Source of the DNA: Ilumatobacteraceae bacterium
Lineage (GTDB): Bacteria; Actinomycetota; Acidimicrobiia; Acidimicrobiales; Ilumatobacteraceae
Reading direction: 5' to 3'
DNA length: 31,362 bases
NCBI GenBank assembly: GCA_041745835.1
Contig: JBGTIA010000745.1
Location: 1 to 31,362, forward strand
Under the pieces are notes generated by a model. The model was not told the DNA's origin. It saw only the letters and a list, made by a program, of their open reading frames with translations, and ran no database searches. Shown here piece by piece: positions 446 to 29,940 of the stretch. Positions within the stretch are counted from its first letter, which is position 1, and the number at the start of each line of letters is the position of its first letter. A program made the translations under genes and the position numbers.

Positions 446-1048
446 ATGAAGCACCAGTGGTTGGCCTACGTCATCGTCGGACTATTGTCGATCGGCGCCG
501 GCGTTGCCATCGCCGGGCTGCCCGACAACGTCCCGGTCGACGCCACGATCGTCGCTCCGACGACCGACGTCGACCCGGAACCCACCCTGCCCGAGACCAC
601 GGTGGCAACGACGACTGTGCCGCCGACCACCGAGCCCGAGACCACCGAGCCTGAGACCGCCAAGGCAACCACCACCGTGGCACCGACCACTACCGTGCCG
701 GACACGACGGCGCCGGACACGACTGACTCGGGGTCCACCCAGCTTCCGGACCGCGGCGAACTGAATGTCGCTGCCGCGAACGTCGCCAACGTTGCTGGTG
801 CCGCAGCAAGAATGGTGACGACGCTCGAGGAGATCGGTTACGTCGACATCGTGCCGCTCGACGGCACCGGGATCGTGGAGTTCACCACGATCTACTACGC
901 CGACGGCTTCGAGGAAGCGGCGGACCGGCTCGCTCTCGATCTGGATCTCTTGCCGTTCTTCGTCTCGCCGCTCGAGGTCGCCCCGTCGGTCGACAATCTG
1001 CCCGCCGACGTCGAGCTGCTGGTGTACATCGGCGTCGACCGCGCCTGA
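446..1048 (+). CDS. Membrane-anchored LytR C-terminal (LytR_C) domain protein, with no LCP catalytic domain
   Basis: N-terminal TM helix (WLAYVIVGLLSIGAGVAIAGL), a long Thr/Pro/Glu linker, then LNVAAANVANVAGAAARMVTTLEEIGY...TTIYYADGFEEAADRLALDL...VELLVYIGVD, the typical LytR_C pattern. Confidence 0.8.
   Translation: MKHQWLAYVIVGLLSIGAGVAIAGLPDNVPVDATIVAPTTDVDPEPTLPETTVATTTVPPTTEPETTEPETAKATTTVAPTTTVPDTTAPDTTDSGSTQLPDRGELNVAAANVANVAGAAARMVTTLEEIGYVDIVPLDGTGIVEFTTIYYADGFEEAADRLALDLDLLPFFVSPLEVAPSVDNLPADVELLVYIGVDRA
1013..1047 (+). repeat. Left copy of island-flanking direct repeat (3' end of the LytR_C gene)
   Basis: GAGCTGCTGGTGTACATCGGCGTCGACCGCGCCTG is 32/35 identical to 29906-29940. The core TACATCGGCGTCGACCGCGCCTG (1025-1047) is identical to 29918-29940. 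Confidence 0.9.
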
Positions 1049-1128
1049 CGCGAATACCGATACGTCAATCTCTGACCGCCGTCCTCTTCAGAGGCCAACC
1101 GGTTTGCCGAGCGCGCCGAGCTATTCGA

Positions 1129-2112
1129 TCACTCGGTGCGTGGACTGGCACCCGTCGACATCTGCTGTAGCCATTCGTGAACCACAGCGGCGTCCGGCCC
1201 GGCCTTGCGAAGATAACTCCTTCTTCGCAACCAGTCGTAAGCGCTAGGGACGACGGCTGTGACCGACATCTTCGCAATGGTGACCCCCTTGCCTGGGCCG
1301 CGTCGACCGGCACGACGATATTCGAGCAGTGCTTCGCGCCGGTGCCCGCTCCGCATGCAGATGTCGCCGAGATAACTGTGCCAGTCCGAGAAGTCGGTCT
1401 GAGCACCGTGCTGTTCGACCAGATCTGCGTACTTGCCGAGAATCTGCGCTCGTTCAACCCGGGAACGATCGATATCCAGCGACATCGAGCCGTCGTGCAG
1501 GTAGTACCCGACGTCCACGTCGTCCACCGCCGCCGGCTCGCCGAACTGCGCCAGCCGAATCCACATGTCCCAGTCGGCAAGGTTCGAAAGGCGGTGGTCG
1601 AATCCACCAACTTCTTTGACGAGGTCTGTTGCTGCCAACACACCTGAGCCGCCTCCCGGAACGATGTTCATGCGAAGCAGCGCTGGCATCATGGGCACCA
1701 TCTTCGGATACTGGATCCCGAGCACGCGGCCACGTGAGTCGACGAACGCGGCAGCAGACACGGCCCATCTCGGGCGATCATCGGAGTCCATCAGCGCCAC
1801 CAGTTGGTTCCGGAGCTTGTGCGGCGACCAGATGTCATCGTCGTCGAGGAAGCCCACCCACGGCCGCGTTACGTGCGCAAGCCCGGCATTCCGAGCGAGG
1901 CTGACACCCTGAGCAACCTCATGATGAACGAGCCGGACACGCTGATCGCCGTGATGGGCGACGAACTCCGCCGTATCATCCTGGGAGCCGTCGTCCACGA
2001 CGATGACGTCCACGTCGACGTCTTCTTGTCGGAGCACCGACGAAATAGCACGATCGAGCAATTTGCGTCTGTTCTTCGTTGGCATCACAACGGTGACACT
2101 CTGTCCGTCCAC
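1129..2112 (-). CDS. Glycosyltransferase family 2 (GT-A fold)
   Basis: VVMPTKNR..LL.RAI.SVL.Q, VIVVDDGSQD, GVSLARNAGL, WVGFLDDDDIW (DxD) and DWDMWIRLA motifs. Confidence 0.93.
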   Translation of the reverse strand: MDGQSVTVVMPTKNRRKLLDRAISSVLRQEDVDVDVIVVDDGSQDDTAEFVAHHGDQRVRLVHHEVAQGVSLARNAGLAHVTRPWVGFLDDDDIWSPHKLRNQLVALMDSDDRPRWAVSAAAFVDSRGRVLGIQYPKMVPMMPALLRMNIVPGGGSGVLAATDLVKEVGGFDHRLSNLADWDMWIRLAQFGEPAAVDDVDVGYYLHDGSMSLDIDRSRVERAQILGKYADLVEQHGAQTDFSDWHSYLGDICMRSGHRREALLEYRRAGRRGPGKGVTIAKMSVTAVVPSAYDWLRRRSYLRKAGPDAAVVHEWLQQMSTGASPRTE

Positions 2113-2369
2113 TAGATCCCTTCAGCCGAGCACCCGGCCTGAGCGGACCGGCGATCGTCAGCGAACTTACATGCCCCCGATCCCGACCGCTGCTCGTTGA
2201 CCATCACCGGGCCGAGCTGCTCCGAACCGACCGACTCAGGGGTCGAGAAGACTCACTGAAGTCGGCATGCCGCGTCCCCGCCCCGATCTCGGCACCGGCC
2301 TGCCCCACGTCCGCTCTGGGAATCGCACCCGTTCCTCCTCCTGCCAGGCGGATGGATCCCGGTCGCGAT

Positions 2370-4010
2370 TCACTCTGCCGGTGCAGGGGCGAGTGCGATG
2401 GACCACATGAGTGCGGAAGCCGTCGCACCATTCGCCGTGGCCGTCAGCCCGCCCAGCAGGCCGGCCCCAACGGTGAGTTCATCGTCGGTGAGCAGCATCG
2501 ATACCCTCCCACCGCCGCTGCCCGACGAGGTGCTGCGCACGATCTGCCCGGTCGGGGGCACCCACCCTGTGGTCGTTGCTGTCTTGTCGGCCCAATACGA
2601 AACCAACATCGACGGCCCGGTCGTGGTCGCCTGTGGGGTGGTGTGGTCGGGAGAGTTGATCGTCTCGACTGCTCCTATGGCGGCCGCAATCGGACTCACC
2701 GGATCGGCGCCCGTATACGAAGCGACCGTCAGAGCCGCCTTCCGCCCCGCCGTCAAGGCCACCGACGTCGTGCTTCCCGCGTCACCACTGGAAGCAATCT
2801 TCCACCAGACTCGCGACTCAATGCTCGACTGTGTGATGGTGCCGAGCAGCTGCCAATCGGGCCCGGTGGGCTCGCCGGCAATCAATCCGGAATCGTTGAC
2901 CGTCAAGACCAACAACAACGTGTCACCCGCTTCGGTCGTGGCGGGAATGCCGACTGACGGAGTAGCGGACCACGTATTGCTGGTTGCGGCAGCCCGGTGA
3001 GAAACCGCTTGTTCAGGTGGTATCTCCTCCGCCACATTCAAAGGAACAGTCTCCGTGTCGACCCTTCCCTCCGCATCGGTGACGGTCAGGACCACGGCAT
3101 AGTCGCCCGCAATCGCATAGGTGTGGTCGATCCACTGGCCTTCGCTCGAGCTGCCGTCGCCGAATTCCCACTGGAATGACAGCGGCATCGAACCGCCAGT
3201 TGTGGTCGACGCATCGAAGGTGCACGCCAAACCCGAACAACTGGCCACCGCGCCGGCATCCAGCGTCTCCGGCAAACCGTACGGAGTGCCGATCGTGACG
3301 AAATCGATGTCGCCGGTGAAATAGTCACAGCTGATCGTTTCCTGGTTGCAGTTCAGCTTTCCGGCGATAGAGATCGGCCTGTCGTTGGTGATGCTCCCGA
3401 CAGCCCCACCAGCTGTTGCCACCAGCGCTCCGTCGACCCACAGCCGAAGCTGGGTCCCGATTCGCTCGCACCGTACCGTGTGCCAGGCGCCGTCGTTGAG
3501 CTTCGTCGGTGACACCACCTCCTTACGGTTCCAGCCTCCACCCGGTGCGACGCCCCGGAAGACGCAGGTGAGATAGCCGGACGGGTTCTCGATCTTCCAG
3601 TACCCTCCCGGCGCACCGCCCTGCCCCTTCTGAATGATGTTGCCGAACGGCTGCGTCGTCCGATATCGCAGTGTGACGGCGTAGTCCTGGGTGCCAGGGT
3701 TCAGTGCCGGGTCGTGCGGGACGGTGACGATGCGTTCAGGCTTGGCCGGCGGTAGCGTGGGGCTTGCGAACGGCCAACGGTACGCGGTCGCTCCGGCGAA
3801 CGACGCACCGGTGATGACCCCGCTTCCGATCGCCCCGTGGCGATCATTGCCGCTGCTGTCAGTCATCTGGGTCGCCCCGGCGGCTTCGTTCATCTGCCAG
3901 CTCGCCACCAGCGGTAGAGGTTGGGCGTCGGCGCTGACCGGACCACCGACGAGCAGTGATGCGACAACGGCACCGGCCAGTCCTACGGATCGAAATCGCC
4001 GAACTCGCAC
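2370..4010 (-). CDS. Secreted LamG-like jellyroll + PKD domain protein with an unassigned C-terminal beta-rich domain
   Basis: GTG at 4010 follows a GGAGG RBS (the ORF track extends to 4049). Signal peptide ends VSADA. LamG-like SWQMNE...LNDGAWHTVRCERIGTQLRLWVDG...FTGDID; PKD motif FQWEFGDGSSSEG..IDHTYAIAGDYAVVLTVTDAEG. Confidence 0.82.
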   Translation of the reverse strand: MRVRRFRSVGLAGAVVASLLVGGPVSADAQPLPLVASWQMNEAAGATQMTDSSGNDRHGAIGSGVITGASFAGATAYRWPFASPTLPPAKPERIVTVPHDPALNPGTQDYAVTLRYRTTQPFGNIIQKGQGGAPGGYWKIENPSGYLTCVFRGVAPGGGWNRKEVVSPTKLNDGAWHTVRCERIGTQLRLWVDGALVATAGGAVGSITNDRPISIAGKLNCNQETISCDYFTGDIDFVTIGTPYGLPETLDAGAVASCSGLACTFDASTTTGGSMPLSFQWEFGDGSSSEGQWIDHTYAIAGDYAVVLTVTDAEGRVDTETVPLNVAEEIPPEQAVSHRAAATSNTWSATPSVGIPATTEAGDTLLLVLTVNDSGLIAGEPTGPDWQLLGTITQSSIESRVWWKIASSGDAGSTTSVALTAGRKAALTVASYTGADPVSPIAAAIGAVETINSPDHTTPQATTTGPSMLVSYWADKTATTTGWVPPTGQIVRSTSSGSGGGRVSMLLTDDELTVGAGLLGGLTATANGATASALMWSIALAPAPAE

Positions 4011-4067
4011 AGCGCCTCCCTTCTGCCAACGTAGCCTTCTGGGCCGCATTGCACCTCGCCGGGCCTG

Positions 4068-4096
4068 ACATTAAAGGCTCGCGGGGCATTTGTCAG
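4068..4096 (-). promoter_or_regulatory. Candidate sigma70-type promoter for the LamG-PKD gene
   Basis: The minus strand reads CTGACA-N17-TAATGT (-35 at 4096-4091, -10 at 4073-4068), about 58 bp upstream of the GTG. It is overlapped by the inverted repeat CCTGACA/TGTCAGG. Confidence 0.45.
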
Positions 4097-4126
4097 GGGT
4101 CATCGGCGCGCAGCCGGTTGTCCCGG

Positions 4127-6775
4127 CTACGTCACGAAGACGACCACTTTGGCGGTCTCACCTCTGAGACCTGTGCTGTCGGTGGCGCGGGCGAACACGA
4201 CCAGGTCGAACGGTGCAGGGAGCGTGAGTTCGTGCGTCCACTGGTCACCGAAGACCTCGGCTTCGACCGCCGCCCACGACGGCTGCCACCCAGCACCGTT
4301 CCAGTACTCCTTCGCGCCTCGCTTCTTGACCACGAGGCTCACTCCGGCCAGGTCGTCGTCCACGACCGAACCCGAGAACGTGACCGGGTTCGCCTGGGTG
4401 GACCGAGGAGCGGGTTCGTCCAGCGTGATCTCCGGGGCGACCGGCGTGGAACCGACCGTTGCCGTGAAGTTGCGCGACGTCCGAACACCTCGTGTGCCGC
4501 CGACGTCACGCGCTCCGACGGTGACCTTCACCGCGGTCGTGGTAGGCGGCGCGAAGTCATACGACCACGACGTCGTTGGCGAGCCCGGATCGGACAGTTC
4601 AGCGGCGACGCGAGACCAGCCGGCGATGAATTGCGAACCGTTCCAGTACTCACTGGTTCCCGCCTTCTTGATCACCACCTCCACGCCGGCCACACCCAGA
4701 TCGTCCGATGCATCGCCGGTGATCCGAACCGGCGCCTGCCTGAGGCTTCCCGCCTGCGGTGACGTGATCGTCGCTTCCGGGTTTGCCTCGACGGCGAGTT
4801 GATAGGTGGCGGAGAACGATCCGTCCTCGAGAGGAGTGCGAATTGCATGTTGGCGAGCCCCTCCATCCGACCACGAGGCGAACGTCCAGGAGGATCCGTT
4901 GGACGTCTGGGCTGCGGGCGCCTCCAGCACCCGTTCGATCCCAGCAACGGCCGTGAACGTCGCCGGCGTGGTGATCGGGCTGCCGTCGAGCAGGAGTGAG
5001 AGGCCCGACGGTTCGGTGTCGAGCGTCACCTGCACGTGCTTCGGGAGCACATCTTGGCTGACCGTCACCGACGTGCCAGCGGAGTCTGTTGCCGTCAGAT
5101 GGATGCGGTAGAACACGTCTGGCGCTGTCTCGTCATTGAAGGGGATGTCGAGCGTGCCCCCGGACACACCCGCCAACTCGGAAATGAACGGGTGGGTGTG
5201 TTCGTCATGATGGAACACAATCTCCCAGCGCAGTGACGCAGGATCCAGCGTTCCGTCCTCGGCGTCGGTGGCGGATCCGGCGAACTGGTAGGACTCGCCG
5301 GCAACGTAGCGAAGGTCCGTCGCCGGGAGAGAAATGACGGGCACCGGAGCTGTGTTCGACGAAATCGACAGCAGAGCACCCGCGCTGGTGACGCTGGCTC
5401 CGGTGGCGTCGTTCACCACCACGGAGAACACCGCACCGTCGTCGGCCTCGGTGGCGCTGAAATCGAGCGATACGTCTACCTCGCCGTCGATCGCGCTGCC
5501 GTCGCGCTGCCACTGGTAGCCGAATGGCCCTACTCCGCTGACCTGCACGTCGAACATGACCGTCTCACCGACCGACGCAGTGACATCGCTGGGCTGGCGA
5601 GTGATCGTCAGCGGCGCAGGCGCCGACGTGTACTGGATCCTTCCCACCCCGCCCGTGCGCCCGACGGTGTCGCCGTTGTATTCGCGGTCGAGGTAGTACA
5701 GCGCACCCGTCACCGGGCTGATCTTCACCTCGACGAGCCGGTGGGCGCCCGTGAGGAACCGTGTAGCCGCACCGGTCTCGAGATCGAGGTGTTCGATCCA
5801 ACCGAAGCAATGGTCGCCGTAGAAGAAGTCGCCCCGGTACTGCTCCGGGAACGTCTCGTTCTGAGCGATGTAGAACGCCCCGCCCGTGATCGCACATCCG
5901 TCCGGATCGTGCGAATAGGCGTGTACTGGGTCGGTGTAGCGGGGGTCGTTCACGACACCGGACACTGCTGGCCACCCGTAGTTGGCGCCAACCACGATCT
6001 GATTGATCTCCTCCCAGTCGGTCGGACCGACCTCACTCATGTAGAGCTCACCGGTGATCGGGTGACCTTCCATCCGATACGGGTTGCGCAAGCCGTTGCC
6101 CACGATCGCACGGAGATCGCCGTCGAGCACGTCGTAGTAGGGGTTGTCCGTCGGGATCGAGCCGTCGGCGTTCAGCCGCAGCGCCTTGCCGAACAGTGAG
6201 TTGAGCGGTTGCGCCACCGTCGTGCCCTTCACACGGTCGCCGAGCACCCAGTACAGCTTGCCATCGGGCCCGAATCCGACGTCGCCGCCTTGATGTTGCT
6301 GCTGGCTCGGATCGATGTCGTTCACCTCGAACAGCACCTGCTCGCTCGATGGATCAGCCGATGACCCGTCGGAGTCGTACCGAGACAGCCTGAAGCGCTG
6401 AGGTCCGGCCACGTCGAGAGGGTCGGTGATATAGGAGACGTACACCTGTCCTGACGTGGTGAAGTCCGGCGCAAAGGCCAAACCGAGCAGTCCCGAGCCG
6501 AGATTCGCCGCTTGGGGCAACTCGAGGAAGTTACCGAGGTAACCGGAGTCGTCGAAGATCTCGATGCGTCGCACGTTGCCGGCGAGGACGAAGAGGCGAC
6601 CGTCCGGAGATACTTCCATTCCGACGGCGTTCTGGATGTCGGTGGCGATCGTGCTCTGTGTGAAGCCGGGCGGTGCTGTCGCCGCCTGCACGACATCTGG
6701 CGTGTGCACCACCGTTGCGACCAACAAACCGGTCAACACGATCATCGTCGTGGTCGCTCGAGCCCGCACCGTCAT
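4127..6775 (-). CDS. Secreted PQQ-dependent sugar dehydrogenase-type (GSDH) beta-propeller with Ig-like/PKD-like C-terminal domains
   Basis: Signal peptide ends VVQA. Motifs HQGGDVGFGPDGKLYWVLGD, GKALRLNADGSIPTDNPY, GLRNPYR, NYGWP. Then an Ig-like ITRQPSD...YQWQRDG segment, a WEIVFHHDEHTHP module, and two terminal Ig-like repeats with EYWNG. Confidence 0.85.
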   Translation of the reverse strand: MTVRARATTTMIVLTGLLVATVVHTPDVVQAATAPPGFTQSTIATDIQNAVGMEVSPDGRLFVLAGNVRRIEIFDDSGYLGNFLELPQAANLGSGLLGLAFAPDFTTSGQVYVSYITDPLDVAGPQRFRLSRYDSDGSSADPSSEQVLFEVNDIDPSQQQHQGGDVGFGPDGKLYWVLGDRVKGTTVAQPLNSLFGKALRLNADGSIPTDNPYYDVLDGDLRAIVGNGLRNPYRMEGHPITGELYMSEVGPTDWEEINQIVVGANYGWPAVSGVVNDPRYTDPVHAYSHDPDGCAITGGAFYIAQNETFPEQYRGDFFYGDHCFGWIEHLDLETGAATRFLTGAHRLVEVKISPVTGALYYLDREYNGDTVGRTGGVGRIQYTSAPAPLTITRQPSDVTASVGETVMFDVQVSGVGPFGYQWQRDGSAIDGEVDVSLDFSATEADDGAVFSVVVNDATGASVTSAGALLSISSNTAPVPVISLPATDLRYVAGESYQFAGSATDAEDGTLDPASLRWEIVFHHDEHTHPFISELAGVSGGTLDIPFNDETAPDVFYRIHLTATDSAGTSVTVSQDVLPKHVQVTLDTEPSGLSLLLDGSPITTPATFTAVAGIERVLEAPAAQTSNGSSWTFASWSDGGARQHAIRTPLEDGSFSATYQLAVEANPEATITSPQAGSLRQAPVRITGDASDDLGVAGVEVVIKKAGTSEYWNGSQFIAGWSRVAAELSDPGSPTTSWSYDFAPPTTTAVKVTVGARDVGGTRGVRTSRNFTATVGSTPVAPEITLDEPAPRSTQANPVTFSGSVVDDDLAGVSLVVKKRGAKEYWNGAGWQPSWAAVEAEVFGDQWTHELTLPAPFDLVVFARATDSTGLRGETAKVVVFVT

Positions 6776-7083
6776 ACCCCCAGGTGTCGTTGCCGTTCAA
6801 GGGAGGAGCGGCTGGACGGCACCATAGACCTCCGCACTGTGACGCTGCAACTGCCATCGGGGACTCCAGCCGCGCGGGGTGTGCCGGAAGAATGCTGGAC
6901 GCTGCTCTCCGGCACACCCCGGCAACCGATGCACAAGGCCTGGCCAGAGCACAATTGTTGCGGAACGTCATGTAATCGTCACACAATCGATATAAAGTCC
7001 ACGCCCACTCAGACCGATAGACCCTCTGGCCAACCCGCGTCACCTCTCTTGGGGGGCGTGCCTCATCGACGGATGGAGACCCC

Positions 7084-8820
7084 ATGAACGATCACCGCAA
7101 GTCGAACACTGCCATACCCGCCCCAGCGCGCCGCCGCGCCATCGGCGCCGCCGTTGCAGCCGCCATGTGTGCAGGAGCACTGGCCACTTCCGCCCCGGCC
7201 GCACAGGCCAGCGGGCCCGAAGTCATCCTCATAAGCCGCAGCGTTCCGGTGCCGACTGCCGACGAGGCGGTCGTGGAACGTCTGAACCTCCTCGGGGTGA
7301 ACCTCCGACTGGTGGACGACGACGACGTGCGCAACTCCGGCGTTGCCGCAATCCAGAACGCCGATGTGGTCCTCGTGTCGTCCACCGTCTATGCGGCCAG
7401 GATCGGCGAGCGATTGAACGCAAGCCCGACGCCGATCCTCACGTGGGAGCACGAACTCTACGACGAACTCGGCATGACATCGGGCGCAACGGCCAACGGC
7501 GAGGCGAGCGCCACCGACACGATCGTGATGGCCGGGTCAGCGCACCCGGCTGCCGCTGGACTGTCCGGGAACGTTGTGTTCGCCGAGAAGGATCGCGCCG
7601 TTCCGTTCGGCATCGTCGGATCTGGAGCCGAGGTGCTCTCCACCATCGAGGGTCAGGCGAACAAGGCGGCCCACTTCGTCTACCCCGCCGGCGCATCTCT
7701 GCCCGGCGGAGGCTCCGCAAGCGGCATCCGTGTCGGCATGTTCATGACACAGAGCGCACCGAGGCACCTCACCGACGCCGGATGGAGCATGTTCGACGCC
7801 ACCGTTCAGTGGGCCGCCGGTCTCACGCCGACGACACCAGCCCCCGTCCCCGCCCCAGCTCCAGCTCCCGCCCCAGCTCCAACTGATCCAGCCCCGGTCG
7901 GACTGACCGGCGGGAGTGAGAAGCTCGATGCGTTGTTGGCGCCCGTGGCAGGGACGCACTTTGGTGCGAATGCCTCGAAGCGTGGTACCGGGAGTCAGTA
8001 CGACTCGATCTTGGCCTTCGAGCAGAAGCTCGGTCGCCGACTGTCGGTGCTCAACCGATTCCACGAGTTCTCCGCGGGTGTGGAGTCCAACTTATTCTGG
8101 GACCGCAAGCACATCGATGATGGCCGGATCGTGATGCTGTCGTGGCGTGCGACGGACAATGCGGGGTCGACAAAGGGAGTCCCCGACGCGGATCGGGCGG
8201 TCAAGATCGTGCAGGGCCAGTTCGACACACAGATTCGGGCGATGGCGCGTGAGGTGAAGGAGCTGAATGCGCAGGTGTTGATCCGCTTCAACTGGGAGAT
8301 GGATCAGTCGCCAGGTGCTACGCAGTACATCGGCACCCCGTCGGAGTTCATCGCGGCGTGGCGGTACGTGCACGACATGTTCGAGGTCGAAGGCGCCAAT
8401 AATGCGGTGTGGGTGTGGGCGCCGCGCGCTGCGTCGTTCAACAAGGGTGCGGGTCAGTCGTTCTATCCGGGTGATCGATATGTGGACTGGATCGGAGGGT
8501 CGGCGGTGCCGATCGATTCGTTCCGTGACCCCGTCACGGTCTACGGAGCGTGGCATGACTGGGCGAGTCAGAAGGGCAAGCCGATGTTGTTGTGGGTGGG
8601 CTTGCGTGAGAATCCCGATGATTCGCAGTGGAAGGCGAAGTTCTTGACGGACCTGCAGGGGTTGATCCAGGGCCCGTGGTCGCAGGTGAAGTCGTTGGTC
8701 TACTACCACGCGAATTCGCCGAAGGGGTACGACTATTGGGCGGACACCTCGACGGCATCATGGAACGCGTTCCGGTCGATGGCCTGCTCGGGTCACTTCG
8801 CCACCACCCACACCTGCTGA
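7084..8820 (+). CDS. Secreted protein: unassigned N-terminal alpha/beta domain, (PA)n linker and GH26-like TIM-barrel domain (probably catalytically defective)
   Basis: GGAG RBS before ATG; Ala-rich signal peptide; PAPVPAPAPAPAPAP linker; GH26-like motifs LIRFNWEMD, FIAAWRYV, NAVWVWAP, FYPGDRYVDWIG, GKPM. Confidence 0.82.
   Translation: MNDHRKSNTAIPAPARRRAIGAAVAAAMCAGALATSAPAAQASGPEVILISRSVPVPTADEAVVERLNLLGVNLRLVDDDDVRNSGVAAIQNADVVLVSSTVYAARIGERLNASPTPILTWEHELYDELGMTSGATANGEASATDTIVMAGSAHPAAAGLSGNVVFAEKDRAVPFGIVGSGAEVLSTIEGQANKAAHFVYPAGASLPGGGSASGIRVGMFMTQSAPRHLTDAGWSMFDATVQWAAGLTPTTPAPVPAPAPAPAPAPTDPAPVGLTGGSEKLDALLAPVAGTHFGANASKRGTGSQYDSILAFEQKLGRRLSVLNRFHEFSAGVESNLFWDRKHIDDGRIVMLSWRATDNAGSTKGVPDADRAVKIVQGQFDTQIRAMAREVKELNAQVLIRFNWEMDQSPGATQYIGTPSEFIAAWRYVHDMFEVEGANNAVWVWAPRAASFNKGAGQSFYPGDRYVDWIGGSAVPIDSFRDPVTVYGAWHDWASQKGKPMLLWVGLRENPDDSQWKAKFLTDLQGLIQGPWSQVKSLVYYHANSPKGYDYWADTSTASWNAFRSMACSGHFATTHTC
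7924..8820 (+). repeat. GH26-like module, copy 1 (paralogous to 10186-11082)
   Basis: Colinear with copy 2 at a constant offset of 2262 bp. About 34 amino-acid differences in about 300 by manual count. 8669-8747 is identical to 10931-11009. Confidence 0.95.
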
Positions 8821-8832
8821 CCCCAGCCGCGA

Positions 8833-8868
8833 GTGAAGCGGCGGAGGAATCACCTTCCGCCGCTTCAC
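8833..8868. terminator. Strong GC-rich hairpin between the two GH26-like genes (terminator or mRNA-stability element)
   Basis: Perfect 13-bp stem GTGAAGCGGCGGA / TCCGCCGCTTCAC with a 10-nt loop, 12 bp after the stop. There is no U-tract, which is common in actinobacterial terminators. Confidence 0.55.
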
Positions 8869-8898
8869 CGCGTTGCCTCAAGAAGATAGGAGAACCGG

Positions 8899-11082: not shown

Positions 11083-11396
11083 CTGAAACGAAGGCGGGCC
11101 CTCGCCAGCTCTTTCTCGTCGAAGCGAGGAGAGATGTCAGGCGAAGGCCAGCGCGTGGGCACGGATCCCATAATCGTTGCGATCGTTCCGTGGCGGTACG
11201 AGGGATCTCTGCTCGCGACTGCGTTCTCGTTGCCGAGTGGTCTGAGTCCGGAGCTGTGCGCGCCCCGATCGAGGCGAATGTCTTTGCGGGTTCCTGGGAA
11301 TCCATAGCAGCGCCGTGACATCGTCCGATGTCGTGTACATCGATCTCGTGCGGGTTTCTCCAAACCGGTGAGCGGTGACCTGGTAGTCAAGGTGGA

Positions 11397-11430
11397 GGCG
11401 ACAAGACGGCGGCGACAAGACGGCGGCGAC
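11397..11430. repeat. Short intergenic tandem repeat, 14-bp unit x 2.4
   Basis: GGCGACAAGACGGC GGCGACAAGACGGC GGCGAC. Confidence 0.8.
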
Positions 11431-17785: not shown

Positions 17786-17827
17786 GATCCTAGACGGCGC
17801 ACTTCGAAGCGAGGGATTTCGCTCTAA

Positions 17828-20883: not shown

Positions 20884-20917
20884 GACGGGGTCGGATGACG
20901 GAGTGTGTCGCCGGACA

Positions 20918-21790: not shown

Positions 21791-21835
21791 GAGAACACCT
21801 GACGTCCCAGCCTCGACGAGCGCACAGTCCCTATC

Positions 21836-23281
21836 CTATCTGTGCTCCATTCGAACCCGATGTACTACGGAGCGGTCCCGCCGAACGAGGTGCGGAGGTG
21901 TGGGGAGATTCGGCGAAGGTACGACGTCGACTGGCGGCGGCGGGAGCGGCGTGTTCGTCGATTGGTCGTTCGTTTCGATCTTTGCGTTCGTGACCGGCGA
22001 GCGCAACAGCAGAGCGGCAATGATCATCGCGAGAGGAAGCTGGATCGGCGTGTGCTCGTAGAAGATGCTCTGCAACACCACGACCACGACCGCGGCGTGC
22101 AACCACAGGCCCCAGGTGGTTCGTTGGCGCCAGCTCCGAGCGATCACATTCGCCCACCAGGAGAGGTACAGCAGCAAGCCGACAAGACCCTGGCTCACGA
22201 GGATCAACCAGACCTGTCCGTGTGTACCGACCGACGGGCCGGAGTCCTTGTCGGTTCGCTCCTGGGGAGAGCCCCACCCGAGGAATGGACGCTCCAGGCC
22301 CCGGTCGATCGACTGTTCGTAGAGGCTGGAACGGGCCTCGTCGCTGTGTCCGTTCTCGGATCGGTCGCCGACGACGTCACCCAGCGGAGTGAGCGCAAGG
22401 ATCGCAAGGAACCCGACGAGTGGGATCAGCGAGAGAACAACCGTACGCAGCCGAAGGCTGGTGACCAGCCGGATGATCACATAGGCCACGCCAACGATGA
22501 GACTCAACCATAGACCGCGGTTGAGTGACGAGACGACACTGACCACCGAGAGTGCCAGCAGGATCATGACGCCCATGCGCGCGCCTCGTGTGGAGCGTCC
22601 GTGCAGCAACCAGGCGATCACCACAGGAAACAGGATCCCGAATGTCGACCCCCAGCCGTTGGTGTACGGGAACAGAGCAGTAGGTCGCCCCAACTCCCGT
22701 CCGAGTAGACGCGACACTTGGGCGAACTCGGGGTGAACGAGTTGATACACCAGAGGATTGGAGAACGCACGTTGCGGAAGGACCATCTCGAGTGCGCTCG
22801 AGAACTGGAGCCTGGGCAGGACCGCTCCGATCAGCCCGCCTACGGCCACGATCGACCACAGGCCGACCAGCAGCGAGATGACCCTCTCGGTGGAAAGGCG
22901 CCGACGGTCGATGTTGTAGACCCAGAGGAAGAGCACCGTCGCCGCGAAGTACACGCTGGCCCGGTAGGCGAAAGACGGGAACCTCGACAGTGACCCGAGC
23001 TGCGTCGTCGACAGCAATACCCATGCGAGGAAGGCCATCCAAAGCGCGAAACCACGCGGGACACGTATGCGATCAGCGTGGAGCAGGCTCGGAATCAGCA
23101 GGAGTGCGACAAGTGGATAGGCCACTGCGGACAGGCCGAGAGCCCACCACACCGGATACCCCACCGTGAGTGCGGCGATCGGCCACCAGACGGGGAGCAG
23201 CGGTCCGGACGTGCGCGCTCTTCTCGGAGTGCGGTGGAGCGCCGGCGCCGCTGCCGCGCTGCCGACGGTGGTCGAGGTCAT
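21836..23281 (-). CDS. wzy: O-antigen ligase/Wzy-family polysaccharide polymerase
   Basis: ATG at 23281 overlaps the upstream stop (ATGA); the ORF-track extension to 23518 overlaps the co-polymerase gene. About 10-12 TM segments; RPTALFPYTN, SLNRGLW, RPFLGWG and GTHGQVWLILVSQGLVG motifs of the Wzy_C family. Confidence 0.82.
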   Translation of the reverse strand: MTSTTVGSAAAAPALHRTPRRARTSGPLLPVWWPIAALTVGYPVWWALGLSAVAYPLVALLLIPSLLHADRIRVPRGFALWMAFLAWVLLSTTQLGSLSRFPSFAYRASVYFAATVLFLWVYNIDRRRLSTERVISLLVGLWSIVAVGGLIGAVLPRLQFSSALEMVLPQRAFSNPLVYQLVHPEFAQVSRLLGRELGRPTALFPYTNGWGSTFGILFPVVIAWLLHGRSTRGARMGVMILLALSVVSVVSSLNRGLWLSLIVGVAYVIIRLVTSLRLRTVVLSLIPLVGFLAILALTPLGDVVGDRSENGHSDEARSSLYEQSIDRGLERPFLGWGSPQERTDKDSGPSVGTHGQVWLILVSQGLVGLLLYLSWWANVIARSWRQRTTWGLWLHAAVVVVVLQSIFYEHTPIQLPLAMIIAALLLRSPVTNAKIETNDQSTNTPLPPPPVDVVPSPNLPTPPHLVRRDRSVVHRVRMEHR

Positions 23282-24741
23282 GCGGCAATCGAATCCTGTT
23301 CGCTCGAATCCGATTGCCCGGTGTTGCGTTTGCCCGTCGATCGCCGCACCGTACGCCGCAAGCGCTGTCGGATCGTCGGGGCCCTTTCCACGACGGTCCA
23401 GCACCTCTGGACCCCTGCGCGTTCTGCGAGGAGCGCAGCGGCTTCGAGATCGTCGCGACGAGTCCGTCCCACTCGGGCAACGACCACCAACACACCAAGC
23501 GTCGCCGCCAGGTCGCAAGCGTCGGGGCTCGAGAGTACGGGGCGACAGTGGACGAACGCCGTGCCGTCACCCAAAGATGCAAGTTCCTTCTCCATGGCGT
23601 GGTCGATACCGTCGCGGTGCGCGCTGCGAGGAAGAGGGAGCCGTACCTGGACGAGGCCGGACCTCTCCGGCAGGGGGGTGTCGCCGTCATCCAGTGAGAG
23701 CAGCATCGTGTGCCGGCCAGTCTCGACGTGCGCGACAGCAATGTTGTCGATTGCCCGTGACGCTGCAGATTCGGGAACTACACCGGCCAACACGAGCGCT
23801 GATCGGCCGCCACCGGCCGCCGCGAATCTGGCCGCGGTCGCTGTCCGTTGCAGTGACTCGGGAACGTTTCCAGGCTCGAGCACGTCGAGCGTGAATGGAA
23901 TTTCGCCGATCACATTGCCGAGAAGTCGTTGAACGTCGCCGGTGGAGCGCACCGACGGGTCGAGGCGGTCGACCACGAATGCCGCCACGAGAGCGACCAG
24001 CAAGCCGAGCGCCACGCTGACCCCGATGAGTGCCATCGCGGGGATACCCGAACCGCCCAATTCCTCGACGGTCGTGCTGGTGGTGACGACGCCCCGATCG
24101 AGTGGCTCGAGCAATAGCACGCTGGTGTCGCCTCGAAGCCGAGTGAGCTGGTTCTGCAGCACCGATACCAGTGCGGCGGCGGACGTCGCTGCCGGCGAGT
24201 CGTCCTCGCTCGAGGATAGGAGGTCGGTCTGTTCGCGCAGCTCGTCGGTGACGCGCTGGATTTCTACGGTGCTGCTGTCGAGACGAACGCGGCGCTGCTC
24301 CTCCAACGAGGCCACCCGTTCCTGCAAGTACGCCTCGGAGAGGCTCGCAGAGATGAGTCGGGCGGTCTCGGGGTCGTCAGCCGTCACAGCGAACGACAAG
24401 ATCGGTCGCTCCGGCACGGCGCGAATCTCGACATCACGATCTAACGAGATGGAATCGTCAACCGGCCCGGCGACCCCCAACGCCGCGGTCTCGACACGAT
24501 CGGATCGGGCGAACTCGACCTCCGGCTCGAGCGGCGGCAGTTGAACTCCGCTGAACGGCGGTGCGATCTCGGTGGTCGCGCGGTATTCAACAGCCGGTGG
24601 CGCCTGGCGATCGGCGATCAGAAGCCCGGCAGCCGACACGAGCAGCGTGACGCCGACGACGAGGAACGCACGACGTCGCACCACGGCGACATAATCTCCG
24701 AACTCGGTCGGCGCAGGTGGCGGAGAGCCGAAGTCGGTCAT
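23278..24741 (-). CDS. Wzz/Wzc-like polysaccharide co-polymerase with a degenerate tyrosine-kinase-like C-terminal domain
   Basis: DYVAVVRRR..LVVGVTLLV (Wzz N-terminal TM), coiled-coil, second TM followed by DRLDPSVRSTGDV.RLLG..IGEIP. The P-loop-like region lacks GK[ST], and there is no C-terminal Tyr cluster. Confidence 0.85.
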   Translation of the reverse strand: MTDFGSPPPAPTEFGDYVAVVRRRAFLVVGVTLLVSAAGLLIADRQAPPAVEYRATTEIAPPFSGVQLPPLEPEVEFARSDRVETAALGVAGPVDDSISLDRDVEIRAVPERPILSFAVTADDPETARLISASLSEAYLQERVASLEEQRRVRLDSSTVEIQRVTDELREQTDLLSSSEDDSPAATSAAALVSVLQNQLTRLRGDTSVLLLEPLDRGVVTTSTTVEELGGSGIPAMALIGVSVALGLLVALVAAFVVDRLDPSVRSTGDVQRLLGNVIGEIPFTLDVLEPGNVPESLQRTATAARFAAAGGGRSALVLAGVVPESAASRAIDNIAVAHVETGRHTMLLSLDDGDTPLPERSGLVQVRLPLPRSAHRDGIDHAMEKELASLGDGTAFVHCRPVLSSPDACDLAATLGVLVVVARVGRTRRDDLEAAALLAERAGVQRCWTVVERAPTIRQRLRRTVRRSTGKRNTGQSDSSEQDSIAA

Positions 24742-24780
24742 CTCAATTCCTTGGGCATGGGGGTCTCCTCGAGAGCGGAA

Positions 24781-25872
24781 TCAGAGCAGGGCACCGAGCA
24801 CCGTGCCATGGGGGTAGGCCGCTTGTTGCTCGGGCCACTGCAGCAGGAAGACATCGGTGACCGGTCGGATGAGGCGGGCGGTCATCGTCACGAGGTCGAT
24901 GCGGTCGTAGACCTCGACGTAGACGGTGACCGTTCCGAACAGCCGCGACAACCAGAAGAACGGCACAGCAACGCCTGCTCCGGTGGAGACGATGACGTCG
25001 GGTCGTTCCTTGTACATGAGTCGCGCAGCCAGTGCGAGATTGCGAATGAGGTTCGGAATGTTGCGCGTGGTGGGAGTGAAGGCAAACCTCACTCTCTCGA
25101 ATTCGAGGAGCGATCGCACCGACACGAGGTCGAAACTGACCCAAGAACGTTCGTGCTTCGCGAACCACGGTTTCAGGGCCCAGCACTGCGCCAGATGTCC
25201 GCCGCCCGATGTCACCAGCATGATGTGGTATTGCTCAGGGCTGGAGTCCGGGCGCCGACGGCGTCTGAAGCGTTGCGGAAGGCGTGGCTTACCCGGACGT
25301 TCTCCGAGGTACACCGCGCGATCAACCACAGCAGCAAACGCATCGATGGTGGCCTCGAGCTGGCCAGCATCACCGACTTGGCGTGTCCGTTCCGGCTCGG
25401 AGAGTTGAGCGTCGATGAGCGCGGTCAGCTGGTGCATGTCGTTGGCGATCACGACGTTGCCGCGATCCGACATGAATTTCGCGAAGCGCTGCTGGTGGCT
25501 GTCGATGTGTTCCCCCCGGCCGGGGTCACGTGGTACCACGATCGGCACCCGGCCGCACTTCATCGCATCCGTGATCGTCGCTGGGCCACCGTGGCAGACG
25601 ACGACGGTCGCCGATTCCATGTACTTGGCCATCTCGGCAGGGGTGAAGTACGGCTCACTGTCGCCGTCGGCTGCGTTTCTCGACGTGCCGGTCTGGCACA
25701 CCGCCCGGATCGGAATGCCCTCTTCCCGTCGGGCGCGGACGTAGTCGTCGACGTAGTCGATCAGTCGGTCGAACTTGTGGTGGTCGGTGCCGACGGTCAC
25801 GAAGAGGTCGATGCTTTCGGAATCGTCGTCTCTCAGCACAATCGGTTCATTCGGTGTCTTCACATCCGCCAT
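24781..25872 (-). CDS. Fused PssE/CpsG (Alg13-like) and PssD/CpsF (Alg14-like) glycosyltransferase
   Basis: GGGAGG RBS before ATG 25872. N-half LFVTVGTDHHKFDRL...VVCHGGPATI...PIVVPR...GEHIDSHQ is PssE/Alg13-like. C-half MLVTSGGGHLAQ...DVIVSTGAGVAVPF...VYVEVYDR...FLLQWPEQ...YP...LG is PssD/Alg14-like. One uninterrupted frame. Confidence 0.9.
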   Translation of the reverse strand: MADVKTPNEPIVLRDDDSESIDLFVTVGTDHHKFDRLIDYVDDYVRARREEGIPIRAVCQTGTSRNAADGDSEPYFTPAEMAKYMESATVVVCHGGPATITDAMKCGRVPIVVPRDPGRGEHIDSHQQRFAKFMSDRGNVVIANDMHQLTALIDAQLSEPERTRQVGDAGQLEATIDAFAAVVDRAVYLGERPGKPRLPQRFRRRRRPDSSPEQYHIMLVTSGGGHLAQCWALKPWFAKHERSWVSFDLVSVRSLLEFERVRFAFTPTTRNIPNLIRNLALAARLMYKERPDVIVSTGAGVAVPFFWLSRLFGTVTVYVEVYDRIDLVTMTARLIRPVTDVFLLQWPEQQAAYPHGTVLGALL

Positions 25873-25890
25873 GCGCCCTCCCATCTATTG

Positions 25891-28602
25891 TCAGAAGATC
25901 CTGAGTGTCTTCTGGTACGCGCCGACAGCCGGATTGCCCGCTTGGTCAGTCATCGTCGAGTCGGCCAAGAAGGTGACCGTCGTCTGCGGCCCAACCGTCA
26001 GCAGGTCACAGTCGCCCGAGCACGTGCCCAGAGTCAGCGTGGTCGCGTCGCCGACGCCGCGCAACTCGAACGGTGATGCGAGGAACACCACTTGAGCGCC
26101 GGATCCGGTGATGAACCCGGGCGAACCTAGAGCGAGCACGCCGAAGAACGACGGGGCACTCAAGACGTCGTCGGATGCGCCGCCGTCGCTGAGACTCACG
26201 TCGATCGTCGAACGAATCGACGAGGCGTCGATCACCTCACTCCAGTCGACCGACAGGGTGTCTCCGGCCTCGGCGAGACCCGTCGTCCCGCTGTTCGACT
26301 TGCGAAAAGACAAGGGGACCGGGCCGGCCCCGTCGGAAGGTGATGTGAGAGCAAACGCAGCGTGATTCCCAGCAGCGTCCTGAATGGCGTTCGCTGCGTC
26401 GAGCGACACCTGCATGTCGCTCACCGCCGTCGAAGGCGCACCGACCCCTTCGACGATCAAGATGGATGCGACGTTGCCCGCAATCGAAACGCTGGTCAAC
26501 TGCCCGCCCGACGGGACATTCATCGCCGACCAGCCCGAAAGACACGGTGCGGTGCAAGTGGCGAGCGGCTCGTCGAACTCGGCGCGAACACTGTCGACGA
26601 GACCATCTTGGTCGATGTCGAGCATCACCAGCGCGACGAGCGTCGGCGGTGTTACGTCGGCCGGATCGGGGATGCGCACGGTCGTGAGGGTGCTTGCCTG
26701 ATTGTCCGTGGGATCGGCGTCGAGTCCTGTCGTGGTGACAGTCGCCGATGCAATGACCGTCTGCGGCTCTGCAGGCGCGACTGCGTCGACCGTCACCACG
26801 GCGATACCTTGGGAATTGACATCACCCAGGGTGCAGCTCACCGCCCCGATGAGCACGCTGCATGCGCCCGCCGAGGTGGTGACTCCCGCAACTGAGATCG
26901 GCGGGTCGAGTGCGAGTTCGAGGATGACACCGGGGGCGGCGTCTGGGCCGTCGTTCGAGACGGTGACGGTGTACTTCACAGTTCCCGAGACCTCGACCGG
27001 ATCTGCGAACGGCTCGATGACGACTGACACATCAGCGGTGCCCGGCACTGCATCGACACTGGTCTGCACGGTGACGGCGTTGTTGGAGACGTCAGGATCG
27101 GCAGCGTCGGAGAGCAGCGCCAGCGTCGTCTCGGCCAGTCCGGCCGCCGACGCCGTGAAGGTCAACGAGACGTCGGTCGTGTCGCCCGCGTTGACGAGCC
27201 CGACCTCACAGGTCACCACGGACGTGGCCGGGTCGGTCAGACACGGAATGGACGACGACCACAATGCGAGTGCAGGCGGGACGGTGACGGTCAATTGGAC
27301 GCCGGCCGCGCCCCGAGGACCCGCGTTGGCGATACGAGCACTGTACGTGACAGCGTCGCCGACCGAGATCGCGTCGGCCGATGTCGATGCAGTGATCGAC
27401 AGGTCAGCCGTGGTGGGAGCCTGATCGTCGATGAACTGGGCGAAACCCTGCTGGTCCCGTCCCCCCACTCGATCGAAATCTCCGCTGATGTGGAGGTACG
27501 GGCCACGCGCATCGACATCGACAATGCCCTTGATGCCGTTGACCCGAGGATTCCAAGTGGGGTCGACCGCACCGGTGACCAGATCGACGCGAGCGAGTTG
27601 GTTGGTCTCGAAGCCTCCGATCTTGAAAAAGTGCCCTCCGAAGTACCCGAAGTCGCCACTTGCGGCGACGCCCTGGACGTTGCCGTCGGCGCGGACGCTC
27701 CAGAGTTCCTCGCCGGTGCTCCTGGCGAACGCGCCTGCCGTACCGCCAGGGCCAGCGCCTGCCAGGAGTATCCGGTCGCCGACGAGTTCGATGTCGAGCA
27801 CCGGATACGAGGGGTGATCGGTGGGGAAGAGAGCCCCGGAGACGGGGTCGAGCGCAGCGAGTCCCCTCGCTGGGACACCGTTGACCGTGGAGAAGGAGCC
27901 GGCGGCGAAGATGCGATCGCCGTCAGCGATGAGCTTCATGACCCGAGCATTCGCGGCCGGTCTCCAGGTCGGATCGAGAGCACCAGTCTGCGCATCGAAT
28001 GCGGCGAGACGGGTGCGCGGCTCGGTGCCGATGTTGCCGAAGAAGCCGCCGATGTAGACCTTGTCGGCGGAGGCAGCGACGGACCGTACCCCCTTGTCGG
28101 GAGCGGACGTCCTGAAGCCGAGGAGTGCGCCGCTCGCCAGGTCGAATGCAGCGACGTTCTTCCGGTTGACCGAACCCACCTTGCCGAAGGAACCGACGAC
28201 GTACAGCTTCGCCCCGTCGGGCGAGACGCTCAACGCGTTGACCGTTCCGTTCACATTGGGATTCCAGCTGGTGGGAACACCTGTCGCCACGTCGATGGCG
28301 GCCAGTCGGTTCCGGCCGACCGACGTGCCGTTGCCGTCGTCGAGCGAGGTGAACTTGCCGCCGATGAACAGCGTGTCACCGCTCTGCACGACTGCGTTGA
28401 CGAGGTCGTTGGCCTGCCACGTGTCGCTCGGCGTCACCGGGAATTCGGCTTCGGCGACACCTCCGACCCATGGAACGACTGCCACGGCAATCGCGAGTGC
28501 TGCAACCGTGCGAAGCAGTGCGCTCGACCGCAATCGGCGTTCGACTTGCGGCAAGCCCGAACGTTCACCGGCAAGCCGGCGCTGGTCATGGGCGGAGTTC
28601 AT
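25891..28602 (-). CDS. Large secreted protein: delta-60-like beta-propeller, two DUF11-like domains and C-terminal Ig-like domains
   Basis: Signal peptide ends VAEA; blades LFIGGKF, LYVVGSF, VYIGGFF, IFAAGSF, GYFGGHF; two ADLSI/ADVSV...GD.VTY...I.N.GP..A.GV units (DUF11 pattern); DIDQDGLVD and I/T.D.AGN motifs. The start overlaps the sulfotransferase stop by 17 bp. Confidence 0.82.
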   Translation of the reverse strand: MNSAHDQRRLAGERSGLPQVERRLRSSALLRTVAALAIAVAVVPWVGGVAEAEFPVTPSDTWQANDLVNAVVQSGDTLFIGGKFTSLDDGNGTSVGRNRLAAIDVATGVPTSWNPNVNGTVNALSVSPDGAKLYVVGSFGKVGSVNRKNVAAFDLASGALLGFRTSAPDKGVRSVAASADKVYIGGFFGNIGTEPRTRLAAFDAQTGALDPTWRPAANARVMKLIADGDRIFAAGSFSTVNGVPARGLAALDPVSGALFPTDHPSYPVLDIELVGDRILLAGAGPGGTAGAFARSTGEELWSVRADGNVQGVAASGDFGYFGGHFFKIGGFETNQLARVDLVTGAVDPTWNPRVNGIKGIVDVDARGPYLHISGDFDRVGGRDQQGFAQFIDDQAPTTADLSITASTSADAISVGDAVTYSARIANAGPRGAAGVQLTVTVPPALALWSSSIPCLTDPATSVVTCEVGLVNAGDTTDVSLTFTASAAGLAETTLALLSDAADPDVSNNAVTVQTSVDAVPGTADVSVVIEPFADPVEVSGTVKYTVTVSNDGPDAAPGVILELALDPPISVAGVTTSAGACSVLIGAVSCTLGDVNSQGIAVVTVDAVAPAEPQTVIASATVTTTGLDADPTDNQASTLTTVRIPDPADVTPPTLVALVMLDIDQDGLVDSVRAEFDEPLATCTAPCLSGWSAMNVPSGGQLTSVSIAGNVASILIVEGVGAPSTAVSDMQVSLDAANAIQDAAGNHAAFALTSPSDGAGPVPLSFRKSNSGTTGLAEAGDTLSVDWSEVIDASSIRSTIDVSLSDGGASDDVLSAPSFFGVLALGSPGFITGSGAQVVFLASPFELRGVGDATTLTLGTCSGDCDLLTVGPQTTVTFLADSTMTDQAGNPAVGAYQKTLRIF

Positions 28603-29536
28603 ATCCGTAACGAACCATGAGCGGGAATGTCATCGCCGCGATCACCGCCTGTTGGCGGCCCGCCATGGTCTGCTTCCATGCGTCGTCGCCGCGCAGGGGA
28701 ATCCAGCCTGATTGGTGGCGCATCGGGTTGCCGATCACGGTGTGTGTGAGGCCGAGTCGTACGCCTTTCGGCCCGAGGAAGTCCGAGAACGATGCATCGG
28801 CATTGACCCCGACGAGTTCGAGAATCCGTCGTAGGTGCGTTTCCGGGTTACGCACGAGATCCTCGTACCGAAGCAGGACATGGGGGGAGCCGTGCTCGAC
28901 CACGTGCATCTCCGCGTTGTACGTGACATACCGTGCGGCGCCGCTGAACCATGAGTAGCGAGGCATGTAACGTGTCATATCGAGGTCGTCCTCCATGCGA
29001 ACCTGCTTCATCCACGATGTCAGCGTGCCGCGCGGGTCGCGCACGAGATGCACGAAACGCGGTTCGATGCCCGGCGTCGCTTCAAGGAGGGCGGCGAACG
29101 AAGCGATCTTCGACGAGTCGACGATCACCTTGGCGCCCGACACCTCGCGCATCGCCCGGTAGAGGTTGGCCAGGATCTCGCCATACTCCGCAACCGCATC
29201 GTCGGTACGCGACCGGATCCCCTTGCGACGCACTGCGGGAAGATGCCACGGCTTGTCGACGAGCGAGCGGAGTTCGTCGAGGCGCACCGGATCCAGCTGG
29301 TCCCAGCCCCCGAAGGCCGTGCTGCCGACGGCTCCCCAGAACTCGCACTCGGCGAAGCGCTCTCCACAGCCGCACACTCGGTTCTCCACGAGACCGCGGA
29401 GGAATACGTCACGGATCTCCCCGACACAGACATACCCGTCGACGGCGCCGAGCATTCGCGACAGAAGCGTGCTGCCGCTACGTCCCCAACCGCCGATGAA
29501 CAACGTGTGAACGCTGTGCGGATTTCTGCTGTCCAT
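28586..29536 (-). CDS. PAPS-dependent sulfotransferase (Sulfotransfer_3/CHST-like motif set)
   Basis: FIGGWGRSGSTLL (5'-PSB), VCGCGERFAECEFW, IVDSSK, HLVRDPRG (3'-PB), LRYEDLVRNP. Confidence 0.92.
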   Translation of the reverse strand: MDSRNPHSVHTLFIGGWGRSGSTLLSRMLGAVDGYVCVGEIRDVFLRGLVENRVCGCGERFAECEFWGAVGSTAFGGWDQLDPVRLDELRSLVDKPWHLPAVRRKGIRSRTDDAVAEYGEILANLYRAMREVSGAKVIVDSSKIASFAALLEATPGIEPRFVHLVRDPRGTLTSWMKQVRMEDDLDMTRYMPRYSWFSGAARYVTYNAEMHVVEHGSPHVLLRYEDLVRNPETHLRRILELVGVNADASFSDFLGPKGVRLGLTHTVIGNPMRHQSGWIPLRGDDAWKQTMAGRQQAVIAAMTFPLMVRYGYELRP

Positions 29537-29905
29537 ATCGCCTCGCCGCCCTCTCGATCCGAGTCACCAGAGTACCACCAGCGTCGGAGGACGGTCCGGG
29601 TGAATCCCCGGAATTGCGAGCCTCTTGACGCAGGCGCAACGGTCCGTCAAGTATCTGTCTGGATGTACCGTGAGCGGTCTCCGGAAGTGAATCGGTGCCC
29701 ACCGAGGGTGAATTCCGGACCTCCGTTCGGCAACCCCCGGTGTACTTTGGGGTCCCAGCAAGGAGCTCCTCTTGTCTGATTGGAGTGCAGCGTGTTCCGG
29801 CCTGTCACACGCTGTCGTGTAATTGGTCGGTTGGTCACCGTCGTTGGGGCTTGGAGCGCCACAAGGAGGCGGGCTTCGAAAGCTGATGGCCGATGTCTCG
29901 ATATG

Positions 29906-29940
29906 GAGCTGCTCGCCTACATCGGCGTCGACCGCGCCTG
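29906..29940 (+). repeat. Right copy of island-flanking direct repeat (displaced duplicate of the LytR_C gene 3' end)
   Basis: GAGCTGCTCGCCTACATCGGCGTCGACCGCGCCTG translates ELLAYIGVDRA, versus ELLVYIGVDRA at 1013-1045. Confidence 0.9.

Follow-up and report, generated by a model that had tools for sequence, protein, structure and literature searches.

How does a block of polysaccharide and surface-protein genes come to lie between an intact cell-envelope gene and a stranded second copy of that gene's own 3' end? The question is raised by contig JBGTIA010000745.1 (hereafter C745) of a metagenome-assembled genome (MAG) of an Ilumatobacteraceae bacterium (GenBank assembly GCA_041745835.1). The contig was analyzed in its entirety as one window of 31,362 nucleotides (nt) and is the longest contig of a MAG of 3.69 Mb that comprises 749 contigs with a median length of ~4 kb and is 74% complete. 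The intact target gene, LytRC1 (446..1048, plus strand), encodes a LytR_C-domain protein of 200 amino acids (aa) (Pfam LytR_C, 22.7 bits versus a cut-off of 22.2). Between it and its native right neighbor, orfX (30016..30330, plus strand), lies an inserted island of ~28.85 kb (1049..29898) with 17 genes and one insertion sequence (IS), for which Pfam matches indicate a sulfated Wzx/Wzy polysaccharide and secreted or surface proteins. Judged by its flanks in related genomes, this 28.9-kb block is an insertion between the LytRC1 stop codon and the native downstream spacer, and the repeat copies that bracket it are, by the pattern of their differences, two distinct alleles of the gene end that recombination brought together.

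The repeat pair itself was confirmed by direct reading in the form given by the original prediction on this DNA: positions 1013-1047 and 29906-29940, at an offset of 28,893 bp, agree in 32 of their 35 bases and share a perfect 23-bp core (1025-1047 and 29918-29940). With weaker similarity added, a repeat search extends the pair to 42 nt at 86% (1006-1047 versus 29899-29940), the stronger part of the right copy being preceded by a 3-nt match, CGA, at 29899-29901. The left copy (1006..1047, plus strand), which resembles the left attachment (att) site attL of an integrated element, constitutes the last 13 codons of LytRC1, and its 35-bp part corresponds to the final 11 codons. The right, attR-like copy (29899..29940, plus strand) is an orphan LytRC1-type gene end that reads DMELLAYIGVDRA and ends without a stop codon, TGC standing where the stop would be expected. 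In 100 dinucleotide shuffles of the window, no match with three or fewer mismatches arose. The 23-mer occurs at only these two places in the whole MAG at up to two mismatches and is therefore not a dispersed repeat, which removes one of the grounds on which the prediction could have fallen. An exact scan of genome contigs found the core only in congeners G003 and G007, in a single copy each, and the metagenome contig collection gave no exact match. A degenerate pattern applied across the family proved too unspecific, and nothing said here draws on it or on the unpublished genomes G156 and G426. Extra att copies inside the island, as accretion would leave, were limited to a chance match with six mismatches at 5477.

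An error of assembly or binning that fused sequences at a short repeat into a chimeric MAG contig would give the same picture, and the fragmentation of this genome, with the window as its longest contig, speaks for it. However, both junctions were reproduced in separate Logan assemblies of two runs: contig L087 (SRR28170463) equals window positions 28485-30043 at 100%, contig L088 (SRR28170462) equals positions 143-1955 at 99.8%, and between them these separately assembled contigs run through both junctions and both repeats without a break. Both ends of C745 are syntenic with congeners, and the two halves of the island are tied together by the 4-bp target duplication, CTAA, that is common to both sides of the IS. 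The final k-mer of an assembly is usually longer than 23 bp, and a repeat of this size falls below it. An artefact, another ground on which the prediction could have fallen, is therefore unlikely, and we give it only the faintest probability of all the explanations weighed here.

That the block is an insertion follows from its flanks. In at least 11 congeneric species (G003, G023, G010, G014, G050 at two loci, G060, G055, G057, G051, G062 and G054), only 58-172 bp separate the LytRC1 stop codon from orfX, and LytRC1, orfX and the dioxygenase gene beyond it are syntenic across the genus. The empty site that had been predicted, a LytR_C gene followed directly by the gene at 30016, thus exists in related species, none of them conspecific; no genome of the same species is present in the collections, and all empty sites therefore come from other species. 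The nearest LytR_C homologue among 5.8 billion proteins has 70% identity, and exact look-ups found no record of the orfX protein or of the dioxygenase (TauD) protein. DNA alignment with four empty-site genomes places the boundaries precisely: on the left, the window is homologous up to the LytRC1 stop codon and unrelated after it; on the right, homology begins at 29899/29906 and extends over the gene end, the spacer and orfX, with unrelated sequence to its left. A native spacer that resembles a repetitive extragenic palindrome (REP) stands directly to the right of the right copy, which is therefore embedded in native DNA. Across 53 congeners, the island DNA had no match other than its first gene (81%, G001), the IS (89%, G002) and a widespread repeat domain in one GH26-like gene (GH26b). 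Composition agrees, as the shift falls exactly between the repeats. The GC content at third codon positions (GC3) of all 17 island genes lies below the genome median (percentile 1.6-35), against percentiles of 42-88 for the four flank genes; the GC content of the island is 0.64-0.65 versus 0.667 for the genome, and its tetranucleotide distance is mostly in the upper quartile. Insertion at the 3' end of a protein-coding cell-envelope gene, as originally proposed, is accordingly borne out by both synteny and DNA alignment.

The origin of the repeat is less simple than a copy of the target made at the moment of insertion. The two copies were set beside 18 congeneric alleles of the gene end. The six codons (18 bases) that precede the core contain 6 differences, close to the between-species mean of 6.3, and the following 21 bases contain none; among 85 species pairs that are similarly divergent upstream, just 4 have an identical core. 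The differences sit at wobble or variable codons (D-V-E-L-L-V versus D-M-E-L-L-A), and each copy matches a natural allele, the left that of G065 and the right that of G061, to whose LytRC1 end the right copy is identical at 30 of 30 bases. Upstream divergence at the between-species level, combined with an identical core, marks the copies as two alleles and not as a target duplication made in place. Duplication in situ by a transposase-like or staggered-cut insertion, with the copies diverging later, would explain why direct repeats bracket the insert, but it would require that, of 39 bases, the six differences should affect only the 18 upstream ones and spare the 21-bp core, an outcome with about 1 chance in 100 for randomly placed differences. 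Moreover, 35-42 bp is far above the few-bp duplications of DDE transposases (8 bp in the example of PMC5704250), no terminal inverted repeats are present, and the sole transposase belongs to the internal IS with its own 4-bp duplication. An IS-bounded composite element fails on similar points, with one IS only, internal to the island, no terminal inverted repeats, and a repeat of 35-42 bp with 3-6 differences. We regard duplication in situ as highly improbable.

The mechanism that we favor, tentatively and at a little under an even chance, is site-specific integration of the att type. A circular element, with an attachment site that imitated the conserved end of the gene, would have integrated at LytRC1, placing the 28.9-kb sulfated-polysaccharide and surface-protein island between the stop codon and the native downstream spacer. 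Recombination would have joined two alleles of the last ~13 codons, of which one keeps LytRC1 intact on the left and the other was left stranded as an orphan fragment on the right. The recombinase would since have been lost, or would always have acted in trans, leaving a probably immobile island similar to a cis-mobilizable element (CIME). We infer integrase action at the LytRC1 end from the form of the scar: two alleles with an identical core fit an incoming att site that carried a foreign gene end, with the crossover in the core. Elements with tyrosine recombinases are bounded by repeats of 8-60 bp and integrate at the 3' ends of protein genes (PMC5704250), and a 35-42 bp repeat at a 3' gene end, with the gene kept intact, matches that description.

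The enzyme was sought in six-frame hidden Markov model searches of the whole genome with Phage_integrase (PF00589) and Resolvase (PF00239). There was no match on contig C745 at E ≤ 0.01, in keeping with the original prediction that no tyrosine or serine recombinase is encoded between the repeats. Genome-wide, the same searches gave ~22 Phage_integrase matches and 1 Resolvase match; the former number is large for 3.7 Mb, and it makes a trans-acting enzyme conceivable. A short MAG contig, C111 (572-3644), carries genes for a tyrosine integrase of 392 aa and a product of 513 aa, together with an orfX-like fragment that is 62-66% identical to orfX. It was considered as a partner of the island and rejected, as it has no similarity to the island ends.

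Several observations weigh against att-type integration. Pfam and six-frame searches of the 28.9 kb found no relic of an integrase, excisionase, relaxase, transfer or replication gene, and only ~80 bp, where an integrase usually sits, separate LytRC1 from the first cargo gene. Arm-type or inverted repeats common to the island ends did not rise above shuffles (best inverted alignment 16 versus a shuffle mean of 16.8). The native stop codon is missing at the right copy, and an apparent gap of ~6 nt relative to G065 falls exactly at the edge of that repeat. The first cargo gene has an orthologue in a congener at a divergence like that of core genes, and at least part of the cargo therefore came from within the genus. 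Other DNA also occupies the LytRC1-orfX site in other species, as the prediction had suggested might be found, in amounts of 0.65 kb (a LytR_C paralogue, LytRC2), 0.8-1.3 kb, 3 kb and 4.7 kb; the occupants include a thioesterase gene (G061), a DUF4012 gene (G069) and a repeat surface protein (G007). In none of the congeners with extra DNA (G004, G059, G065, G020, G021, G011, G024, G048, G061, G007 and G069) was a second gene-end copy found at six or fewer mismatches, and the site therefore behaves as a general variable spot and not as a recurrent att site. The idea that an integrase made the repeat has not gained from these results, with no relic, no arm-type repeats and no sister element at the same site. 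It seems improbable that a class of integrase-less surface-polysaccharide islands, moved in trans by recombinases encoded elsewhere, uses the LytRC1 end as a genuine attachment site. If it were, such an att-site class would link the exchange of glycan loci to a gene of the cell-wall glycopolymer attachment family.

The lack of a recombinase, of its relics and of arm repeats would be natural if no integrase had been involved. The island may have come by one-sided homologous plus illegitimate recombination (homology-facilitated illegitimate recombination, HFIR) from a related Ilumatobacteraceae donor in which it already lay behind the LytR_C gene. The incoming DNA would have been anchored by homology in or to the left of LytR_C, and its far end would have been joined illegitimately ~42 bp before the resident stop codon. 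On this view the donor allele would survive as the left copy, and the right copy would be what remains of the resident gene. We consider HFIR the main rival of att-type integration, less likely than the latter but likelier than the other explanations. It accommodates two copies that are as diverged as alleles of different species and are both natural alleles, as well as a right copy contiguous with the native spacer; a site that varies across the genus without repeats makes a donor with cargo there plausible, and the first island gene has its orthologue within the genus. In transformable bacteria, HFIR is documented with microhomologies of 3-10 bp (PMC6382021), and the CGA match at 29899-29901 is 3 nt long. 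As regards the anchor, the relatives are about equally distant from the window. On the other hand, HFIR gives no reason for an identical core of 21-23 bp beside 6 differences in 18 bases, a combination found in ~5% of species pairs, and the copies cease to be similar precisely at the stop codon, which is what an att site that regenerates the gene would lead one to expect. No donor was found, and we know of no natural transformation or HFIR in this lineage.

LytR_C paralogues stand in tandem at exactly this site in G004, G001, G020, G021, G059 and G065, and the orphan fragment occupies the position at which the final gene of such an array terminates, beside the same REP-like spacer. A polysaccharide locus could accordingly have been placed or exchanged between two tandem LytRC1-type copies, the downstream copy being deleted to its last 42 bp. 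The orphan end is, however, of the LytRC1 type (YIGVDRA), and its derivation from the tandem paralogue LytRC2 was rejected, as the latter ends in ..FYLGGS or ..VYLGDT. At least three events would be needed, and a tandem array explains neither why the island begins directly at the intact copy's stop codon nor why an identical core lies beside diverged upstream codons. We judge this history to be improbable.

Loss of the locus by recombination between the repeats, which the prediction also envisaged, is questionable on two counts, namely that 23 bp of identity is at or below the length usual for RecA, which generally needs 25-35 bp (PMC6382021), and that the product would lose the LytRC1 stop codon. 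With TGC in place of the stop in the right copy, precise deletion would yield a LytRC1 protein of 250 aa with a 50-residue tail, ending at 30089-30091 inside orfX.

The whole locus need not have arrived as the single cassette that was proposed. The left 15 kb and the right 15 kb differ in composition, and both the first gene and the IS point to separate histories. The first island gene encodes a GT2 glycosyltransferase (1129..2112, minus strand; Pfam Glycos_transf_2) and lies 80-81 bp from the LytRC1 stop codon. The region around it (1126-2167) has 81% DNA identity to G001 (C134:4917-5968), a divergence like that of core genes, and the copy in G001 directly follows the nuclease gene, across LytRC1 from the island side; either a move within the neighborhood or two separate acquisitions would account for this. 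The IS (17825..19350, minus strand) encodes a DDE_Tnp_1_4 transposase according to Pfam, has terminal inverted repeats CCCGGATCTT..TAGGGCTG as well as the CTAA duplication, and is a later insertion into the island. It is presumably of the IS1380 type, is intact, lies between the gene for Wzx and a 420-aa gene of no assigned family, and has an 89%-identical copy in G002 (C12:228819-230355).

The island genes together form a polysaccharide locus mixed with surface functions. Pfam assigns the GT2, three sulfotransferases, Wzx, Wzy and a GT28/Alg14 fusion to the former. The surface proteins comprise PKD/LamG, GSDH-Ig, two GH26-like, PPC, DUF5122 and DUF11 proteins, beta-propeller proteins among them; two unknowns and the one DDE_Tnp_1_4 IS complete the list. 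The last gene is a sulfotransferase (28586..29536, minus strand), and the right repeat copy lies 370 bp beyond its start codon. The right end of the island between them (29537..29898) is non-coding, with no coding signature, is situated upstream of the long minus-strand operon and has no homology to relatives. A Pfam scan of the island frames (17 genes plus overlapping alternatives) found no initiating phosphoglycosyl transferase of the Bac_transf or WecA type. In related sulfated-polysaccharide clusters of other metagenomes (L089 and L090), Bac_transf and WecG lie beside homologous sulfotransferases. These clusters were rejected as the same island because the gene families are common to both, whereas gene order and flanks are not.

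Among described systems, the closest are the CIMEs (PMC5704250), in which, as here, direct repeats flank an island, one of them is the end of the intact target gene, and integrase and transfer genes are absent. Our island has both putative att ends, attL-like and attR-like, and has no genes for integration or transfer. Descent from an integrative and conjugative element (ICE) or an integrative and mobilizable element (IME) is another matter: a CIME is recognized by its kinship to a known ICE or IME at the same att site, whereas no parent, relic gene or sister element of this island was found in the genus. The island is also large (28.9 kb) and consists of cargo throughout, and its host is an uncultured actinobacterium of the Acidimicrobiia, not a streptococcus. 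Islands and IMEs with tyrosine recombinases are integrated at the 3' ends of rpsI, rplL, rpmE, trmE and yicC (Table 1 of PMC5704250). The present island is like them in using the 3' end of a conserved gene that stays intact, in a repeat within 8-60 bp and in a displaced fragment at its far end; it differs in having no recombinase gene and in that its excision is only putative. In common with site-specific islands at large, it has an empty target site, in other species, and a gene-end repeat made of an intact gene and an orphan fragment beside native DNA. An integrase gene inside the island and use of the same att site by related elements are lacking. As far as we can tell, a stand-alone LytR_C gene is absent from the integration sites of Table 1 of PMC5704250, and the end of a LytR_C gene is not a described integration site.

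In capsule and O-antigen loci, homologous recombination swaps whole cassettes that lie between conserved flanking genes. Similarities to such loci include a variable surface locus at a fixed site, contents that differ by species and a GC content below that of the genome. A double crossover leaves no duplicated gene end, however, whereas one is present here, and the other occupants of this site in congeners are not polysaccharide loci. The products of HFIR (de Vries & Wackernagel 2002, as cited in PMC6382021) resemble the locus in that foreign DNA is joined inside a resident gene, a short resident remnant is possible and no dedicated recombinase is needed. They have been described for short laboratory inserts in naturally transformable bacteria, and a 29-kb insert with an identical 23-bp core would be atypical of them. 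Att-like scars of this sort at gene ends are already known from integrating genomic islands, and for this single locus the structure is ordinary. The value of the case is that it is clean and verified by comparison: a whole surface-polysaccharide program has been added at the end of a cell-envelope gene, in a lineage of abundant, uncultured actinobacteria. It also cautions that a gene-end repeat alone is no proof of integrase action, as the copies here differ in origin, no recombinase gene remains and a deletion between the copies would impair the target gene.

The genes on either side of the island are native. The 5' part of a PD-(D/E)XK (RecB-like) nuclease gene (2..454, minus strand), divergent from LytRC1, runs off the contig; it has a GC3 of 0.85 and 74-88% identity to the genes at the same position in congeners, of which the G004 orthologue matches Pfam PDDEXK_1. 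Orthologues of LytRC1 across the genus are full-length, with 48-71% identity, and all end in ..Y[IV]GxDRA. A scan for promoters and terminators at the left junction found none, and RNA folding of the right junction indicated no special structure (z = 0.31). To the right, orfX encodes a conserved 104-aa protein with 67-92% identity in 36 of the 53 congeners and matched no Pfam family. Beyond it lies a TauD-like dioxygenase gene (30409..31350, minus strand; GC3 0.88), syntenic in congeners at 64-86% identity and assigned through a match to the NCBIfam taurine dioxygenase model that is below the cut-off of that model.

The whole locus is, to judge from gene order in the congeners, prone to rearrangement. 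In G066 and G019, the nuclease gene stands directly beside orfX, with LytRC1 16 kb away in G066 (C1:357500-376500) and on a different contig in G019. The LytR_C-orfX(-TauD) module is present twice in G050 (C10 and C11), G065 (C3 and C11) and G020 (C8 and C38), which reflects either real duplication or mixed strains in the MAGs. In G004 (L035), G059 (L079) and G065 (L078), LytRC2 runs into orfX without an intervening stop codon, in a single open frame of 293-352 aa that may encode a LytR_C-orfX fusion protein.

Within the native spacer, a strongly conserved block at 29975-30015 (GGGGTACCCC..CGTCATGATG) recurs at the same position in 22 congeners. Its end lies 12 nt short of the start codon of orfX, for which it probably serves as the promoter, with a very short leader or none. 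The REP-like element (29943..29972, plus strand) is a 30-bp palindrome with a GGTTCC..GGAACC stem, of which the MAG has at least 12 copies at four or fewer mismatches in 30, on contigs C19, C572, C604, C702 and others. Its 18-mer core has 27 copies in the MAG at up to two mismatches. G059, G065, G023, G003 and G020 have the element at the corresponding position after their LytR_C genes, and the spacer of G059 has two REP-like copies in tandem.

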